IMG/VR virus record: IMGVR_UViG_2563366861_000002
Length of the DNA: 49,107 nucleotides
Origin: a virus
Lineage: Duplodnaviria; Heunggongvirae; Uroviricota; Caudoviricetes
Reading direction: 5' to 3' (one strand)
Numbering within the stretch: position 1 is the first letter of the stretch; the number at the start of each line of letters is the position of its first letter. Position numbers and translations under genes: made by a program. The notes beneath the pieces were generated by a model, which saw only the letters and a program-made list of their open reading frames with translations, was not told where the DNA came from and did not search any database. Positions 13,366 through 19,793 of this stretch are shown here, piece after piece.

Positions 13366-13740
13366 ATGCTCATAGATTTGGTTTTACCTTACCCGCCGAC
13401 GGTGAACACTTACTGGCGACGCCGTGGCAGCACATATTTTATCTCGGAGGAGGGAAAGCGTTATCGCCGGGCTGTGGCGCTTATTGTTCGCCAGCAGCGG
13501 CTGAAATTAAGCCTGTCCGGAAGGCTGGCGATAAAGGTGATTGCAGAGCCACCGGATAAGCGTCGTCGCGACCTGGACAATATTCTGAAAGCACCACTGG
13601 ATGCGCTGACGCATGCCGGACTTCTCATAGACGACGAGCAGTTTGATGAAATCAATATTGTGCGCGGTCAGCGCGTTCCTGGGGGGCGGCTGGGCGTGAA
13701 GATTTACCCCATAATGCTTGAAGGGCAGGTCAAAAAATGA
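13366..13740 (+). CDS. rusA: Holliday-junction resolvase RusA
   Basis: 124-aa ORF; PDKRRRDLDN and DALT...DD motifs match RusA; AGAGG RBS. Confidence 0.85.
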   Translation: MLIDLVLPYPPTVNTYWRRRGSTYFISEEGKRYRRAVALIVRQQRLKLSLSGRLAIKVIAEPPDKRRRDLDNILKAPLDALTHAGLLIDDEQFDEINIVRGQRVPGGRLGVKIYPIMLEGQVKK

Positions 13741-14558
13741 AACTGGAAGATTTACCGAAATACTACTCCCCAAAATCCCCCGGCCTGACTGATGCATCGG
13801 CCTCAACGTCGAAAGATGCGCTGAGTATCACTGATGTGATGGCCGCGCAGGGCATGACACAGAATCGGGCTGAGATGGGGTTTTCTGCGTTCCTTGGGAA
13901 AATGGGCATTAGTATGAATGACAGAGAGCGGGCAACAGAATTGCTGACAGAATATGCACTCAGTCGGTGTGATCGCGTGGCGGCGTTAAGAAAACTCCCG
14001 GCAGAAATAAAACCGGCAGTGATGCGTATTATGGCTTCGTATGCGTTTGAAGATTATGCCCGCAGCGCGGCGAGCAAAAAACAGTGCTCCTGCTGTCACG
14101 GAAACAAATTTATTGAAAGCGAGGTTTTTACAAACAAGATCCAGTATCCGGATGGTAAGCCGCCGGTATGGGCAAAGTGTACGAAAGGTGTGTATCCGTC
14201 TTACTGGGAAGAATGGAAAAAAGTCAGGGAGGTGGTAAAAGTTGCCTGTCCGGAGTGTGGCGGAAAGGGTGAGGTTTCCACCGCCTGTAAGGATTGCCGT
14301 GGGCGTGGTGTCGCCATTCATCGTGAAGAGTCGGTAAAACGTGGTATGCCTGTTATCAGAGACTGCCAGCGTTGTGGTGGTCGTGGCTGTGAAAGACTAC
14401 CATCAACGGAGGCATTTAATGCCATATGCAAAGTGACGAGTGCTATCACGCTTGATACGTGGAAAAAATCAGTGAAACGCTTTTACGATACGTTGGTGGT
14501 TCGGTTTGACATTGAAGAGGCATGGGCGGAGCGGCAGTTAAAGAGGGTAACGCGATAG
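13737..14558 (+). CDS. Q: late-gene antiterminator Q (lambda-Q family with Cys-rich insert)
   Basis: 273-aa ORF; N-terminal YSPKSP...DVMAAQGM and C-terminal FYDTLVV resemble lambda Q; followed by lambda-like pR'. Confidence 0.8.
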   Translation: MKLEDLPKYYSPKSPGLTDASASTSKDALSITDVMAAQGMTQNRAEMGFSAFLGKMGISMNDRERATELLTEYALSRCDRVAALRKLPAEIKPAVMRIMASYAFEDYARSAASKKQCSCCHGNKFIESEVFTNKIQYPDGKPPVWAKCTKGVYPSYWEEWKKVREVVKVACPECGGKGEVSTACKDCRGRGVAIHREESVKRGMPVIRDCQRCGGRGCERLPSTEAFNAICKVTSAITLDTWKKSVKRFYDTLVVRFDIEEAWAERQLKRVTR

Positions 14559-14560
14559 TG

Positions 14561-14592
14561 TTGTTGATTTTTCCCGAATCTGTGGTAAATTT
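14561..14592 (+). promoter_or_regulatory. late promoter pR' (with qut-like region)
   Basis: TTGATT -35 and TAAATT -10; downstream CTCTAACGATGGG nearly identical to lambda pR' region (GACTCAACGATGGG). Confidence 0.6.
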
Positions 14593-14638
14593 GCTCTAAC
14601 GATGGGCGTTTTATGCCTGACGTTAGAAGATTTTTTAC

Positions 14639-14663
14639 ACCCCGCCGCCTGGCGGGTTTTTTA
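14639..14663 (+). terminator. tR'-like terminator of short late leader RNA
   Basis: CCCGCCgcctGGCGGG hairpin plus TTTTTT. Confidence 0.65.
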
Positions 14664-14784
14664 TGACTGAAATCGCGTCAGTATAGTAAACGCGCTGGTG
14701 GCGGTGAATACCTGTCTTTCAGCTTGCTGGCTTTTTCGACAAGAGTTATTGGTGTGTCACGTTAACCGGAAAAGGGAAAAAGAC

Positions 14785-14982
14785 ATGCTAAAACAGCAGG
14801 ATATGACAGAAACCGCCAGAGTGGTGTTTAATGAATTAAGCGTTACCGAACCGGCGACAGTCGGGGAGATAGCGCAGAATACTTACCTTTCACGCGAACG
14901 CTGCCAGTTAATACTGACCCAGCTGGTTATGGCGGATCTGGCAGACTATCAGTTCGGTTGTTACAGACGCCTTCCGCAGTGA
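14785..14982 (+). CDS. hypothetical protein
   Basis: Internal ATG (MLKQQDMTE...) of 94-aa ORF; stop lies inside a terminator hairpin. Confidence 0.45.
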   Translation: MLKQQDMTETARVVFNELSVTEPATVGEIAQNTYLSRERCQLILTQLVMADLADYQFGCYRRLPQ

Positions 14983-14992
14983 AGGCTTTTTT
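14969..14992 (+). terminator. rho-independent terminator
   Basis: GCCTTC-cgcagt-GAAGGC followed by TTTTTTATTT. Confidence 0.6.
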
Positions 14993-15132
14993 ATTTGTGG
15001 TAAATGGGCGGCTGGTGGGTGTTAGGGGCACCCACCAGCCATCTGCTCATGCGTTGGGTTCACAAGCAAACCTCAGGCCCACTGCTTTGCGCAAAAGCAG
15101 AATGAGCCTATCAGAGACAGGCTTAATGATCC

Positions 15133-16182
15133 ATGCTTAATACTGTAAAAATATCCAGTTGTGAGTTAATCAACGCCGACTGCCTGGAATTTATCCGGTC
15201 GTTACCCGAAAATTCTGTTGACCTGATAGTCACGGACCCGCCGTACTTTAAAGTGAAGCCTGAGGGCTGGGATAACCAGTGGAAGGGCGACGATGATTAC
15301 CTGAAGTGGCTGGACCAGTGTCTGGCGCAGTTCTGGCGGGTGCTGAAACCTGCCGGAAGTCTTTACCTGTTCTGTGGTCATCGCCTGGCATCTGATATCG
15401 AAATCATGATGCGTGAACGCTTCAGTGTGCTGAACCATATTATCTGGGCGAAGCCGTCCGGACGCTGGAACGGATGCAACAAGGAAAGCCTGCGGGCGTA
15501 TTTCCCCGCCACAGAGCGCATTCTGCTCGCGGAACATTATCAGGGGCCGTATCGTCCGAAAGATGCCGGGTATGCGGCGAAGGGCAGTGCACTGAAACAG
15601 CATGTGATGGCCCCGCTGATTTCTTACTTTCGTGATGCGCGCGCGGCCCTGGGGATAACGGCAAAACAGATTGCAGATGCCACAGGAAAGAAAAACATGG
15701 TGTCGCACTGGTTCAGTGCCAGTCAGTGGCAGCTACCGAACGAAAGCGATTATCTGAAATTACAGTCGCTGTTTGCCCGGGTGGCAGAAGAGAAACATCA
15801 GCGCGGTGAACTGGAAAAGCCCCACCACCAGCTGGTGGATACGTATACGTCACTGAACCGGCAGTATGTGGAGCTGCAGAGTGAATATAAGCATCTGCGG
15901 CGGTATTTTGGTGTGACGGCGCAGGTGCCGTACACGGATGTGTGGACACATAAACCGGTGCAGTTCTATCCCGGGAAACATCCGTGCGAAAAACCGGCAG
16001 AAATGCTGCAGCAGATAATCAGCGCAAGCAGTCGTCCGGGTGACCTGGTTGCAGATTTTTTTATGGGCTCAGGTTCAACGGTAAAAGCGGCACTGGCGCT
16101 CGGGCGTCGTGCGATTGGCGTTGAGCTGGAGACCGGACGTTTTGAGCAGACAGTCAGGGAAGTTCAGGATTTAATCGTTTGA
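15133..16182 (+). CDS. orphan DNA methyltransferase (beta-class amino-MTase, DPPY motif)
   Basis: 349-aa ORF; motif IV VTDPPYF near N-terminus and motif I FFMGSGST near C-terminus; no adjacent restriction endonuclease. Confidence 0.85.
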   Translation: MLNTVKISSCELINADCLEFIRSLPENSVDLIVTDPPYFKVKPEGWDNQWKGDDDYLKWLDQCLAQFWRVLKPAGSLYLFCGHRLASDIEIMMRERFSVLNHIIWAKPSGRWNGCNKESLRAYFPATERILLAEHYQGPYRPKDAGYAAKGSALKQHVMAPLISYFRDARAALGITAKQIADATGKKNMVSHWFSASQWQLPNESDYLKLQSLFARVAEEKHQRGELEKPHHQLVDTYTSLNRQYVELQSEYKHLRRYFGVTAQVPYTDVWTHKPVQFYPGKHPCEKPAEMLQQIISASSRPGDLVADFFMGSGSTVKAALALGRRAIGVELETGRFEQTVREVQDLIV

Positions 16183-16231: not shown

Positions 16232-16307
16232 GGCCCTTTAGCTCAGTGGTGAGAGCGAGCGACTCATAATCGCCAGGTCGCTGGTTCAAATCCAGCAAGG
16301 GCCACCA
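16232..16307 (+). tRNA. tRNA-Ile (anticodon CAT, ileX-like)
   Basis: 76-nt cloverleaf GGCCCTT...AAGGGCC-A-CCA; anticodon loop CTCATAA; near-identical to E. coli tRNA-Ile2 as I recall it. Confidence 0.85.
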
Positions 16308-16316
16308 TATCACATA

Positions 16317-16393
16317 CCACCATTAGCTCATCGGGATAGAGCGCCAGCCTTCGAAGCTGGTTGCGCGGGGTTCGAGTTCTCGATGGCGGTCCA
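16317..16393 (+). tRNA. tRNA-Arg (anticodon TCG), imperfect stems
   Basis: D-arm GCTC-ATCGGGATA-GAGC, anticodon stem CCAGC/GCTGG with loop CTTCGAA, T-loop TTCGAGT, 3' CCA; one acceptor mismatch and wobble-rich T-stem. Confidence 0.55.
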
Positions 16394-16644: not shown

Positions 16645-16848
16645 TGATGATTGTCTGGCTGCCGGAGAATTTGTTAAAAATTACATCGCATGGTGAATCC
16701 CCCTCAGCGGCGGGGCATCTGGCAAAGTGTATGATCCAGAGAACATGCAAATTCAGTAGACAGGCTGAATTTACCGGGAGGCCCCTGGCACCATGCGACA
16801 GACAGAAATTAGGCTATACTTCAGCCCCTCTCCGGAGGGGCTTTTCTG
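16645..16848 (+). ncRNA. candidate structured small RNA / small transcription unit, copy A
   Basis: Promoter-like TTGTCT-17-TAAAAA, conserved GCATGGTG...CACCATGC segments, GC hairpin, and terminator AGCCCCTC-TCCG-GAGGGGCT + TTTTCTG; paralog at 17115-17308. Confidence 0.35.
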
Positions 16849-17114
16849 TGCAGGATGTGTCACAGTTTCCTGAATTCTGAGTACTGTCCTGTTACTCAGG
16901 GTGCTATATTTTCTGACGTGATGAAAGTCTGCCGGAAGGCGGAACGTATCGGAAATGACCCAGTAGAGAAAACGTTGACTCAGATACCGATGCTGAGTTA
17001 CCGGGAAACCGGCATCACATGACCGCTATCCTTCCAGGCTCGCTCCGGCGGGCCTTTTTACTGCAGAAAACAGTTTTCCCGTAAAATGCCACGTTGCTCA
17101 TAATTCAGGCTGGC

Positions 17115-17308
17115 GATTATTGTCTGGCCGGCGGGAAGTTTGTTAAAAAATTTCGCATGGTGAATCCCCCTGTGCGGAGGGGTAATCAGCGAGTAGGTAT
17201 ATGGGATAATCGCGGATTCAGGTGCTGGTACTGAATTCACCGGGAGGCACCCGGCACCATGCAATGGCACATAGCGCCACTCTCCAGCCCCTCTCCGGAG
17301 GGGCTGTT
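17115..17308 (+). ncRNA. candidate structured small RNA / small transcription unit, copy B
   Basis: Same architecture as copy A; internal hairpin differs by compensatory changes (CCCCTCAGCGGCGGGG vs CCCCCTGTGCGGAGGGG). Confidence 0.35.
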
Positions 17309-17340
17309 TATATTGATTTTGTCAGATGTGAGTAAACTCC

Positions 17341-17676: not shown

Positions 17677-17936
17677 TTAGTTTCCTTGTTTATGCCTTGC
17701 TGGTGATGTTCTGAAAAGTATAAATGATATTTTTGATTGTAAACCATAGAGCAGAATTATTTTTCTGATGTTGTTTATTGTTTATTTAAATGCAGGGTGG
17801 TTTATATCTCGTCTTGTAGTTTATCCATGCATATCTGCTTGATGATGAGGTTTTTATTTAAGGTATGGTTTTGTGTTTTTTCTGTATTACATGTCAGGTA
17901 TTTTAAAGAATCATTTTTCAGATGGTGGAAAGAACC

Positions 17937-19793
17937 ATGGCATTTAAACACTATGATGTTGTCAGGGCGGCGTCGCCGTCAGATCTTGCGGAAAAGCTGA
18001 CACATAAACTGAAAGAGGGCTGGCAGCCGTTTGGTAGTCCGGTGGCCATAACCCCTTATACCCTGATGCAGGCGATTGCAGCAGAAGGTGATGTGGTCGT
18101 CAGTGGTGCAACTGAGCCGGAGTGGTACTACGTCATCGTACTGGCCGGGCAATCCAATGCCATGGCTTACGGTGAAGGGCTTCCGCTTCCGGATTCATAC
18201 GATGCGCCCCATCCGCGCATTAAGCAACTGGCCCGTCGTAACACAGTGACTCCCGGTGGTGAAGTATGCGTATTTAACGACATCATTCCTGCTGACCATT
18301 GTCTGCATGATGTTCAGGATATGAGTACGATTAATCATCCCCGGGCTGACCTGAGCAAAGGGCAGTACGGCTGTGTCGGACAGGGCTTACATATTGCCAA
18401 AAAACTGCTTCCGTATATCCCTAATAACGCGGGGATCCTGCTGGTACCATGCTGTCGTGGTGGTTCGGCATTCACCCAGGGCACGGAGGGGACATTCAGC
18501 GAGTCCACGGGGGCCAGTCAGGATTCGGCTCGCTGGGGAGTGGGTAAGCCGTTATATCAGGATCTGCTTTTCCGCACGAAGGCAGCATTGCAGAAAAATC
18601 CGAAAAACGTTTTGCTGGCGATATGCTGGATGCAGGGGGAATTCGATATGACGAATGCCAGTTACGCCCAGCAGCCAGCAGCATTTCTTGCAATGGTACA
18701 GCAGTTCCGTGCTGACCTTGCCGGGCTGGCGGCGCAGTGTCACGGTGGAAGTCCGGCATCAGTCCCCTGGATTTGTGGCGACACGACATACGCGTGGAAA
18801 CAAGAACACGGTACGCAATATGAAGTGGTATATGGTGCATATAAAGGTAAAGAATCCCAGCAGATTTATTTTGTTCCCTTTATGACCGATGGTAGCGGAG
18901 TTAATACACCGACAAACAACCCGTCAGAAGATCCTGATATTGCCGGGTCTGGTTATTACGGTTCGGCATCCCGAACGAACAAAAACTGGGTATCATCAAA
19001 TCGCCCGACGCATTTCAGCTCATGGGCGCGTCGTGGCATTATTCCCGATCGTATGGCAACTGCTATTCTGAACGTAGCCGGTCGCACCTTAGCCTTCATT
19101 AGTGGTAAGGCACCGGAAATCAAACCCTCGCCCGGCGGCGACACTCCATCGGGGCCGTCTGATGGTGACACATCCGTTCGTACAGTCTCCCTGCTGCCGA
19201 CAGCCGGAGAGGCTGCTGCGCAGGGCTGGACCATCACCGGCGGCAGTGTTGCGCTGGAAGATGGTGTGTTTAAGGTTACCAAGCAGAGCAATAAAACTTG
19301 GTCCCTGATGCATCCGGTGGATGACGCAGTCTCCCTGCTGACACGGGGTGGCAGACTGAGCTGTAAGTTTCGACTGTCAGGCGCACTGACCAACAACCAG
19401 TTCGGTCTGGGAATTTATCTGTATACCGATGTAGCGTTACCTGACGTCGTGGCGATGACCGGGACTGGTAACCCGTTCCTGATGTCGTTCTTCACCCAGA
19501 CCACAGACGGCAAACTGAATCTGATGCATCACAGGAAAGCAGGAAACACAAAGTTGGGCGAGTTCGGGAATTACAGTAACGACTGGCAGACGCTGGAGCT
19601 GGTGTTCACCGCCGGCAGTGCCACGGTTACTCCGAAACTGAATGGAGTGGCTGGCCCGGCATTCCAGGTCATAAAAGACAGTCTGACACTGGGGCTGAAT
19701 GCGCTGACGCTGACGGATATTACCAAAAATGCAGCGTATGGCGTTGAGATAGAAAGTCTGGTGCTGGAGATAAATGCACCAGCATCATCATAA
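17937..19793 (+). CDS. sialate O-acetylesterase-like protein (prophage NanS-p-type, SGNH/SASA fold)
   Basis: ~618 aa; GQSN motif (VLAGQSNAMAYGEG) of SGNH-type esterases; occupies the Q-tRNA-[stx]-esterase-lysis position known from Stx and related lambdoid prophages. Confidence 0.8.
   Translation: MAFKHYDVVRAASPSDLAEKLTHKLKEGWQPFGSPVAITPYTLMQAIAAEGDVVVSGATEPEWYYVIVLAGQSNAMAYGEGLPLPDSYDAPHPRIKQLARRNTVTPGGEVCVFNDIIPADHCLHDVQDMSTINHPRADLSKGQYGCVGQGLHIAKKLLPYIPNNAGILLVPCCRGGSAFTQGTEGTFSESTGASQDSARWGVGKPLYQDLLFRTKAALQKNPKNVLLAICWMQGEFDMTNASYAQQPAAFLAMVQQFRADLAGLAAQCHGGSPASVPWICGDTTYAWKQEHGTQYEVVYGAYKGKESQQIYFVPFMTDGSGVNTPTNNPSEDPDIAGSGYYGSASRTNKNWVSSNRPTHFSSWARRGIIPDRMATAILNVAGRTLAFISGKAPEIKPSPGGDTPSGPSDGDTSVRTVSLLPTAGEAAAQGWTITGGSVALEDGVFKVTKQSNKTWSLMHPVDDAVSLLTRGGRLSCKFRLSGALTNNQFGLGIYLYTDVALPDVVAMTGTGNPFLMSFFTQTTDGKLNLMHHRKAGNTKLGEFGNYSNDWQTLELVFTAGSATVTPKLNGVAGPAFQVIKDSLTLGLNALTLTDITKNAAYGVEIESLVLEINAPASS

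Follow-up and report, generated by a model that had tools for sequence, protein, structure and literature searches.

In the ermC/cat leaders, pairing of segment 1 with segment 2 and of segment 3 with segment 4 hides the start of a methyltransferase gene, pairing of segment 2 with segment 3 frees it, and a short open reading frame (ORF) overlaps segment 1. In the leader of the MS2 maturation gene, it is the slow folding of the RNA that controls translation, and a cloverleaf is closed by a long-distance interaction. Here we analysed a stretch of 49,107 nucleotides from a virus of the Caudoviricetes (IMG/VR record IMGVR_UViG_2563366861_000002), called the window in what follows, and in particular the region of about 137 nt (14996-15132, + strand) that separates the second terminator-like hairpin of its late-operon start from an M.EcoGII-type methyltransferase gene. 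We propose that this region is probably a bistable 5' untranslated RNA leader gating translation of the methyltransferase, one of its two folds hiding the start site.

Like the ermC/cat leaders, the window leader has four segments with the same pairing logic, a methyltransferase start that would be hidden and an ORF over segment 1. Unlike them, it has no conserved peptide or stop position, no homology in sequence and no known inducer; moreover two hairpins, H1 and H3, are inserted between its segments, and segment 1 has an extra partner, GCCCA. With the MS2 maturation leader it shares a length of about 130 nt, an upstream sequence that pairs with the ribosome-binding region over a distance and encloses hairpins and, as far as the predicted flips of pairing indicate, a closed equilibrium fold with open intermediates during synthesis. 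However, it stands on the late mRNA of a DNA prophage and is not homologous to MS2, and kinetic control is here a proposal. The layout of the locus resembles that of phage Mu com-mom, in which a small ORF lies directly upstream of a toxic adenine-modification gene whose start is placed in an inhibitory RNA structure, and expression would be similarly late and tightly gated. Com, however, is an RNA-binding zinc-finger protein, while the small protein of the window is a winged helix, dispensable in some phages, and the enzymes and the RNAs of the two systems are unrelated.

A sequence-only reading of the window had pointed out two strong hairpins in the leader, a perfect 12-bp stem at 15010-15040 and a 7-bp stem at 15082-15100, and both were found again. 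The first is an inverted repeat of 12 nt (15010-15021 / 15029-15040) with 100% complementarity; its RNA (15006-15044) folds at -29.1 kcal/mol (z = -5.8), and none of 200 shuffled sequences was equally stable. For the second (CUGCUUU/AAAGCAG, 7 bp) the folding energy is -8.4 kcal/mol (z = -3.2), a stability matched by 2 of 200 shuffles. RNA folding, which had been suggested as a check, gave z = -3.8 for the region 14960-15140. It had also been observed that no T-run follows either hairpin, and indeed the next letters are ATCTGCTC and AATGAGCC; a G+C-rich hairpin with a U-tract, as in an intrinsic terminator, is present at 14641-14664 and 14969-14992 and at neither of the leader hairpins (followed by AUCUGCUC and AAUGAGCC).

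In our nomenclature the 12-bp hairpin is helix H1 (15010..15040), and the 7-bp hairpin is the upper stem (15082-15088 / 15094-15100) of helix H3 (15076..15108), all features of the leader being on the + strand. The other helices were found by eye and with RNAalifold. They involve four short segments that are predicted to pair in two mutually exclusive ways around H1 and the tip of H3, which would remain constant. Segment 1, AUGGGC (15004..15009), contains an upstream AUG (15004-15006) and is invariant in all 50 aligned copies; its partner is either GCUCAU 15045-15050 (helix Ia) or, through UGGGC 15005-15009, GCCCA 15077-15081 (helix P1). Segment 2, UCUGCUCAUG (15042..15051), pairs with segment 1 in Ia or with segment 3, GGUUCACAAGCAAA (15057..15070), in helix H2 (15042-15051 with 15061-15070, alignment columns 53-62 with 74-83). 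Segment 3 has in turn a second, long-range partner in segment 4, GCUUAAUGAUCC (15121..15132), the 12 nt directly before the methyltransferase AUG. This helix, P5, joins 15057-15067 to 15121-15132 (GGUCA-C-AAGC with GCUU-AC-UGAUC) and encloses H3.

Fold B would therefore combine Ia and P5, and P5 would bury the 12 nt upstream of the AUG. Fold A would combine H2 with P1, forming a three-way junction with H1, and the 5' part of segment 4 would pair with GAGCC/GUGAGC in helix H6 (GUGAGC with GCUUAC), leaving UGAUCC free and the predicted start region, UGAUCC-AUG, single-stranded. The lower stem of H3 (GGCCCA 15076-15081 / UGAGCC 15103-15108) competes with P1 for GCCCA. The sequence-only reading, which had suggested a structured leader controlling methyltransferase translation, had seen two of the helices and overlooked the alternative pairings, which hint at the mode of action.

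Homologues were collected by scanning one genome per species, which gave 80 loci from Escherichia to Proteus with methyltransferases 60-100% identical, and 50 distinct leaders drawn from these loci and from phages were aligned. Fold B (Ia, H1, P5, H3) is paired in 93.9% of the alignment cells, against 31-42% with slid partners, and 12 of its pairs are changed on both sides, compared with 4.5 +/- 1.5 in shuffles, none of which (0/500) reached 12. For fold A (P1, H1, H2, upper H3, H6) the figures are 88.5% of cells and 13 pairs changed on both sides, against 7.0 +/- 1.4 in shuffles (0/500). Concerning the single helices, H1 is paired in 93.8% of cells with 5 pairs changed on both sides (e.g. GACUGUA/UACAGUC in Providencia), H3 in 91.8% with 3 such pairs, two of which are in lower H3, P5 in 93.6% with 4, including AU-to-GC and GC-to-AU exchanges, and H6 in 90% with 2. 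The AUG-proximal pair of P5 (columns 70-148) is G-C in two copies, that of the window included, versus the usual A-U. The top-covarying column pair of the entire alignment belongs to H2 (columns 55-81: CG 23, AU 10, UA 7, UG 4), and both of its columns are unpaired in fold B. Conservation of the hairpins in homologues, another check that had been proposed, is also confirmed: they persist, with base changes that compensate for one another, from Escherichia through to Providencia, Proteus and Morganella. Folds A and B, which exclude each other, are thus each backed by covariation in helices of their own, and one of them covers the region before the start codon, as expected of a bistable leader that sequesters a start site. 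An earlier candidate for hiding the start, helix H4 (AUCAG/CUGAU), was discarded in favour of P5, as it showed no covariation and 20 of 50 copies do not maintain its pairing.

These data bear directly on the possibility that the leader is structured and static, with one stable fold that protects the 5' end of the mRNA, offers an RNase III/E site or keeps translation constitutively low, and no switching. We give this explanation a modest chance. H1 is very stable (-29 kcal/mol) and belongs to both folds, and fold B, which is also the predicted equilibrium fold, reaches its 93.9% of pairing alone. Nevertheless, a static fold B leaves the CG, AU and UA exchanges of columns 55/81 without a pair, the covariation of H6 is an additional difficulty, and the invariant stretches that look unpaired are better explained if each of them has two partners. 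Having two partners per segment would account for the invariance of segment 1, GCCCA and UCAC without invoking a protein.

The polarity of the element could also be deduced from the alignment. At several positions most copies have a G·U pair (41, 37 and 42 of 50); since such pairs would be C-A mismatches on the - strand, the leader acts as + strand RNA. An antisense RNA or another - strand element was ruled out by the same frequent G·U pairs, and a - strand 'terminator' at 15123-15105 is at chance level.

The gene that follows (15133..16182, + strand) encodes a beta-class N6_N4_Mtase of 349 aa (Pfam PF01555, E = 3e-44) with DPPY and FMGSGS motifs. It is 95% identical to the enzyme of phage 1720a-02, which has been named as very similar to M.EcoGII (PMC5778455), and by this comparison, made through the 1720a-02 enzyme and not with M.EcoGII itself, we place it in the M.EcoGII family. 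M.EcoGII itself is described as an adenine methyltransferase without sequence specificity, 349 aa long, which the lysogen does not express and which harms the cell when made constitutively (PMC5778455). From family membership, the window enzyme is likewise expected to methylate adenines independently of sequence. A methyltransferase, leader and small ORF 100% identical to those of the window are carried by a contig of E. albertii NBRC 107761, and leaders identical to that of the window are also found in many E. coli genomes.

The silence of M.EcoGII in lysogens, together with its harmfulness when constitutive, provides a rationale for gated translation. In the mechanism that we propose, the leader would ride on a Q-dependent late transcript begun at pR' (14564-14603), and in the lysogen transcription would be kept off by the terminator tR' and by the hairpin at 14969-14992. 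On the late transcript the leader would hold translation of the harmful enzyme low or conditional, the start being shut in the equilibrium fold and accessible in the other one. The bistable model is based on conservation, on covariation for both folds, on near-equal predicted energies and on gene linkage; from these we infer interconversion of the folds in vivo, a block of initiation by fold B and the nature of the trigger.

When each fold is imposed in turn, the predicted difference E(B) - E(A) has a mean of -2.7 +/- 4.0 kcal/mol, and B has the lower energy in 35 of 50 copies. The order of folding was computed as equilibrium ensembles of growing 5' fragments, and the preferred predicted pairing flips as each segment emerges. 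Ia prevails in an early fragment (0.93), P1 (0.65) and H2 (0.46) appear once GCCCA is present, and Ia (0.76) returns with lower H3 (0.77) once GUGAGCC is present; in the full-length leader Ia is at 0.70, P5 at 0.54, H2 at 0.16 and H6 at 0.19. Our first choice for the trigger would be this order of folding during transcription, the start being open on the nascent RNA and closed at equilibrium, which fits the growing-fragment ensembles. Ribosome loading at the invariant upstream AUG in segment 1 would come second, and a partner of the three-way junction, be it a protein or a small molecule, third. It has been reported that Q-loaded polymerase delays and alters the folding of nascent RNA through an exit-channel 'nozzle' (PMC9388147). 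One could hypothesize, although we regard it as very unlikely, that the leader is an RNA switch sensing polymerase modification, Q-loaded transcripts being trapped open in fold A and the rare unmodified read-through closed in fold B; if so, a lethal non-specific methyltransferase would be translated during genuine late transcription only.

Ribosomes could also act as they do in ermC/cat, i.e. by translational attenuation: translating the ORF that begins at 15004, or stalling on it, they would melt Ia and H1, segment 2 would pair with segment 3 and the start would open. The topology of the four segments (1:2 + 3:4 versus 2:3) matches ermC, the AUG of segment 1 is invariant, and the stop of the small upstream ORF lies 21 nt before it, so that reinitiation is conceivable. 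However, we consider this mode of action quite unlikely. The ORF has 33 aa in the window (15004-15105) and from 3 to 58 aa in homologues, and its peptide is conserved no further than the nucleotide constraints require (MGDCK and MGDSE in Providencia/Proteus); no conserved leader peptide was found among the homologues. The Shine-Dalgarno complementarity is not above background, the AUG is missing in many short leaders of Xenorhabdus, and its invariance is equally explained by pairing. A leader peptide MGGWWVL, possibly sensing Trp, was rejected since neither length nor sequence is conserved and Providencia and Proteus have no WW. Also the methyltransferase AUG has no canonical Shine-Dalgarno before it, the pairing energy with the 16S rRNA tail being at background, and the same was found for UGAUC and GUGA, tried as non-canonical Shine-Dalgarno sequences.

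Several points weigh against the bistable leader. Much of the covariation of P5 and upper H2 comes from a single clade (Providencia, Proteus and Morganella; 6 sequences), and in our counts of pairs changed on both sides the unit is the sequence, whether or not the changes arose independently. Such changes are lacking in P1 and Ia, whose 5' partner does not vary. As the sequences of the alignment also served in part to derive the structures, the comparison with slid controls is biased towards the structure under test. A gap of about 3 kcal/mol between predicted folds is no larger than the uncertainty of the energy model. The complementarity of the two AUG regions to the 16S rRNA tail does not rise above background, and the upstream ORF conserves neither length nor peptide, which speaks against a classical stalling-peptide attenuator. 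Finally, short leaders without H3 exist, so the full switch is not universal. Within the reach of sequence analysis, the conservation of the hairpins, the linkage to the gene and the P5 helix nevertheless support a structured leader controlling methyltransferase translation, as first suggested.

The short leaders were observed in Xenorhabdus and Photorhabdus loci, where about 80 nt precede the methyltransferase gene and H3 is lacking. Segment 1 is variable in them and GCCCA is absent; in those of Xenorhabdus, GGUGAA, which corresponds to the UGUGG of the window box, pairs with UUCACC flanking H1. In some Xenorhabdus/Photorhabdus copies H1 is followed by UUUU(C/A), as in an intrinsic terminator, which suggests a transcriptional variant. 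Several Xenorhabdus copies show ATG-GAA-TAG ahead of a GTG start.

The leader is more conserved than the sequences around it. Among the 50 distinct copies pairwise identity is 0.82, versus 0.49 at codon position 3 of the adjacent gene and 0.50 in the upstream DNA, and 50 columns are invariant. BLAST against phage genomes located the block made of small ORF, gap and methyltransferase gene in phiP27, SfV, mEp460, cdtI, Ayreon, many Stx2 phages (Stx2a/c/d) and Klebsiella/Citrobacter phages. In Flotzy, Eeyore and LLS homology starts at window position 15002, the 3' end of the box described below, with unrelated DNA upstream and no small ORF; the leader therefore travels with the methyltransferase gene. 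Of 5426 complete E. coli genomes, 2032 carry it, in up to 7 copies each, none with an RNA annotation. In IMG/VR the 5' motif of the leader is followed by the methyltransferase gene in 112 of 116 independent occurrences, and the remaining 4 are recombinants cut just 3' of H1, as in phiSTEC1575-Stx2k. An IMG/VR protein scan with the methyltransferase returned only relatives at least 95% identical, which added no diversity.

Recombination breakpoints in or just past H1 were seen in phiSTEC1575-Stx2k (locus L009, 1740-1800), in PhiR5_1 (L010, 1744-1765) and in L188, L229, L255 and L275. These recombinants keep the small ORF, the terminator, the box and a decayed H1, the remainder of the leader and the methyltransferase gene being swapped for other genes.

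Prophage late regions are known to yield regulatory small RNAs (sRNAs) such as StxS (PMC7547250), and H1 in the window is a perfect DNA palindrome. One may therefore ask whether the leader region is a trans-acting sRNA cut from the late transcript, or a protein-binding site at DNA level. This appears extremely unlikely to us: there is no 3' terminator and conservation continues unbroken into the start codon, the linkage with the methyltransferase gene is near-constant (112/116), and the G·U pairs and bulged stems of the homologues suit an RNA and not a DNA palindrome. Furthermore no Hfq-bound sRNA adjacent to a methyltransferase gene was found in the supplement of PMC4104026.

Concerning known RNA families, a scan of Rfam 15 at E <= 1 gave no match on the + strand of the leader, hence no known aptamer class of riboswitch; the only match, to P26 on the - strand, was dismissed as chance level (24 bits vs a gathering score of 36). 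We found no paper describing the leader. The M.EcoGII paper is silent on the upstream sequence (PMC5778455), and the methyltransferase is not mentioned in the StxS paper (PMC7547250) nor in the Hfq-CRAC paper and its supplement (PMC4104026). It thus seems that the leader, common as it is in E. coli prophages, has not been described before, although RNA elements of its kind are known.

Directly upstream, a small ORF (14785..14982, + strand, stop codon 14980-14982) encodes a winged-helix protein of 65 aa. It holds this position in about 69 of 88 loci, Xenorhabdus and Proteus included, and its product is named 'TrmB family' or 'DprA-like WH' in databases. The AlphaFold2 model has a pLDDT (predicted local distance difference test) of 90.7 and an H-H-H-strand-strand fold, for which Foldseek returned generic winged-helix matches only (E >= 3.5e-3), which point to no particular function.

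This protein is one of the possible partners if the leader, or its three-way junction, is a binding platform on which a partner sets the fold. Other candidates would be the methyltransferase, which would then regulate itself, a host factor, and S-adenosylmethionine (SAM) or S-adenosylhomocysteine, in which case the leader would be a riboswitch. Loop and junction nucleotides are strongly conserved, e.g. the GCGC of the H3 loop and the AACC linker, the small ORF co-occurs with the leader as just described, winged-helix domains such as those of SelB bind RNA hairpins (2uwm and 2ply are among the Foldseek matches), and the enzyme uses SAM. We hold this explanation unlikely, because three complete phages (Flotzy, Eeyore and LLS) have the leader and no small ORF, no Rfam riboswitch matches, the Foldseek matches of the small protein are as generic as stated, and pairing with two partners already accounts for the invariance.

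Between the small ORF and the leader lies the second terminator-like hairpin (14969..14992, + strand). The sequence-only reading had called it a terminator, and the terminator scan agrees: the stem, GCCTTC/GAAGGC, spans 14969-14986 (folding z = -2.6) and is followed by TTTTTT. Enterobacteriaceae/Erwiniaceae copies have a hairpin at this position, with varying sequence and a T-run of varying quality, and in Providencia, Proteus and Morganella it is missing. In the Enterobacteriaceae/Erwiniaceae copies that have the small ORF, its stop codon is in the loop of the hairpin (in the window, in loop and 3' arm), and the loops holding it read CAG-TAA or CAG-TGA. A ribosome terminating there could therefore mask the terminator, which suggests a further layer of control.

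At the 5' edge of the leader, the sequence-only reading had noticed a second copy of a box of the late promoter pR' and had considered, as alternative to a structured leader, a second Q-utilisation-like element. The two copies of TGTGGTAAAT stand where they had been seen, at 14581-14590 and 14996-15005 (+ strand). The 10-mer occurs exactly twice in the 49-kb window (0.04 expected), and two matches were obtained in 1 of 100 shuffles. The likeness of the leader 5' edge to pR' reaches 12 of 13 nt (ATCTGTGGTAAAT vs ATTTGTGGTAAAT), and ATGGGCG stands after both boxes. The box could accordingly be a -10 element where polymerase starts, or a second loading site for Q; however, the evidence makes this hardly credible.

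In the register of pR' the hexamer at the leader box is TAAATG and not TAAATT, i.e. T-7 is lost, no TTG-type -35 was found 16-18 nt upstream of it, and the promoter scan is negative there. The repeat is limited to 13 nt (14993-15005): the upstream part of pR' is not copied, GGGCGGCTGG comes directly after the box with no counterpart of the AACGAT at 14598-14603, and a Q-binding element was judged by this absence of duplication only. In comparison with a lambda-type pR'/qut and tR', the leader copy lacks the -35, T-7, the pause element and a subsequent terminator; the genuine pR' with its tR' is found 400 nt further upstream (14564-14664). The exact 10-mer is confined to the lineage of the window; elsewhere TGTGAAAAT, TGTGGAAAT, TGTGAAAT, TGTGGAAT or TTGAGAAAT precedes GGGCGG, homologues having GGAAAT, TGAAAT, TGGAAT or AGAAAT before GGG, so that A-11 is absent from most of them (they have G at -11 or lose T-7), and the spacing from box to AUG varies. 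SfV and Ayreon, which have another type of pR' (TGGATAAGAT), carry the same leader box, which is thus independent of pR'. The second Q-utilisation-like element is for these reasons abandoned.

What is conserved in the box region is UGUG, a purine-rich spacer of 3-6 nt and varying length, and then AUGGGCG. UGUGG 14996-15000 is complementary to UCACA 15060-15064, and nearly all copies show the corresponding match between UGUG(A/G) and UCAC(A/G), an invariant part of segment 3; this gives the box a reason at RNA level. A sigma-dependent pause element, in which GGG follows a -10-like hexamer, was also rejected, since most homologues have a G as second letter of the hexamer preceding GGG.

Read along the window, the order of elements around the leader is that of a lambdoid late-operon start. 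The Q antiterminator gene (13737-14558; Pfam Antiterm, E = 6e-50) encodes a long Q of 273 aa and of quuQ type, in which a DnaJ-type CXXCXGXG zinc-finger stretch precedes the Antiterm domain. Directly 3' of it is what we take to be the late promoter pR' (14564..14603, + strand), from its resemblance to that of lambda, with a -35 TTGATT (14564-14569), an extended -10 TGgTAAATT (14583-14591) that takes in the first TGTGGTAAAT box, and the AACGAT (14598-14603), similar to a sigma-dependent pause element. The intrinsic terminator tR' follows (14641..14664, + strand; CCCGCC-GCCT-GGCGGG then TTTTTT in the terminator scan), and its counterpart is marked as terminator in the annotations of SfV and Ayreon. 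In Stx phages the regulatory sRNA StxS spans pR' to tR' (PMC7547250). The pR'-to-tR' transcript of the window (14592-14664, +) is its positional equivalent and holds a near-repeat, GGGCGTTTTATGCCTGA / GGGTTTTTTATGACTGA.

Downstream of the methyltransferase gene there are tRNA-Met(CAT) and tRNA-Arg(TCG), within 16232-16393, like the ileZ/argO pair of phiP27 and Stx2 phages. In those phages stxA comes after the pair; the window has no stx there, and presents the late layout of an Stx phage minus stx. In its place are three tandem copies of STnc100, an Rfam sRNA family (16658-16851, 16887-17062 and 17127-17315, +), two of which score high (138 and 132 bits) while the third is degenerate (30 bits), and then a nanS-p-like ORF of 623 aa (17922-19793).

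M.EcoGII-type enzymes methylate every adenine, yet more than one third of complete E. coli genomes carry prophage copies of them, several of which adjoin Shiga toxin genes. We found no description of how these copies stay silent and then turn on. The leader is a concrete candidate for this control, as it is more conserved than third-codon sites, has two covarying folds and belongs to no Rfam family. It may explain why toxicity differs when M.EcoGII-type genes are cloned with or without their native upstream DNA, and it would add a widespread element of enterobacterial phages to the catalogue of cis-regulatory RNAs.

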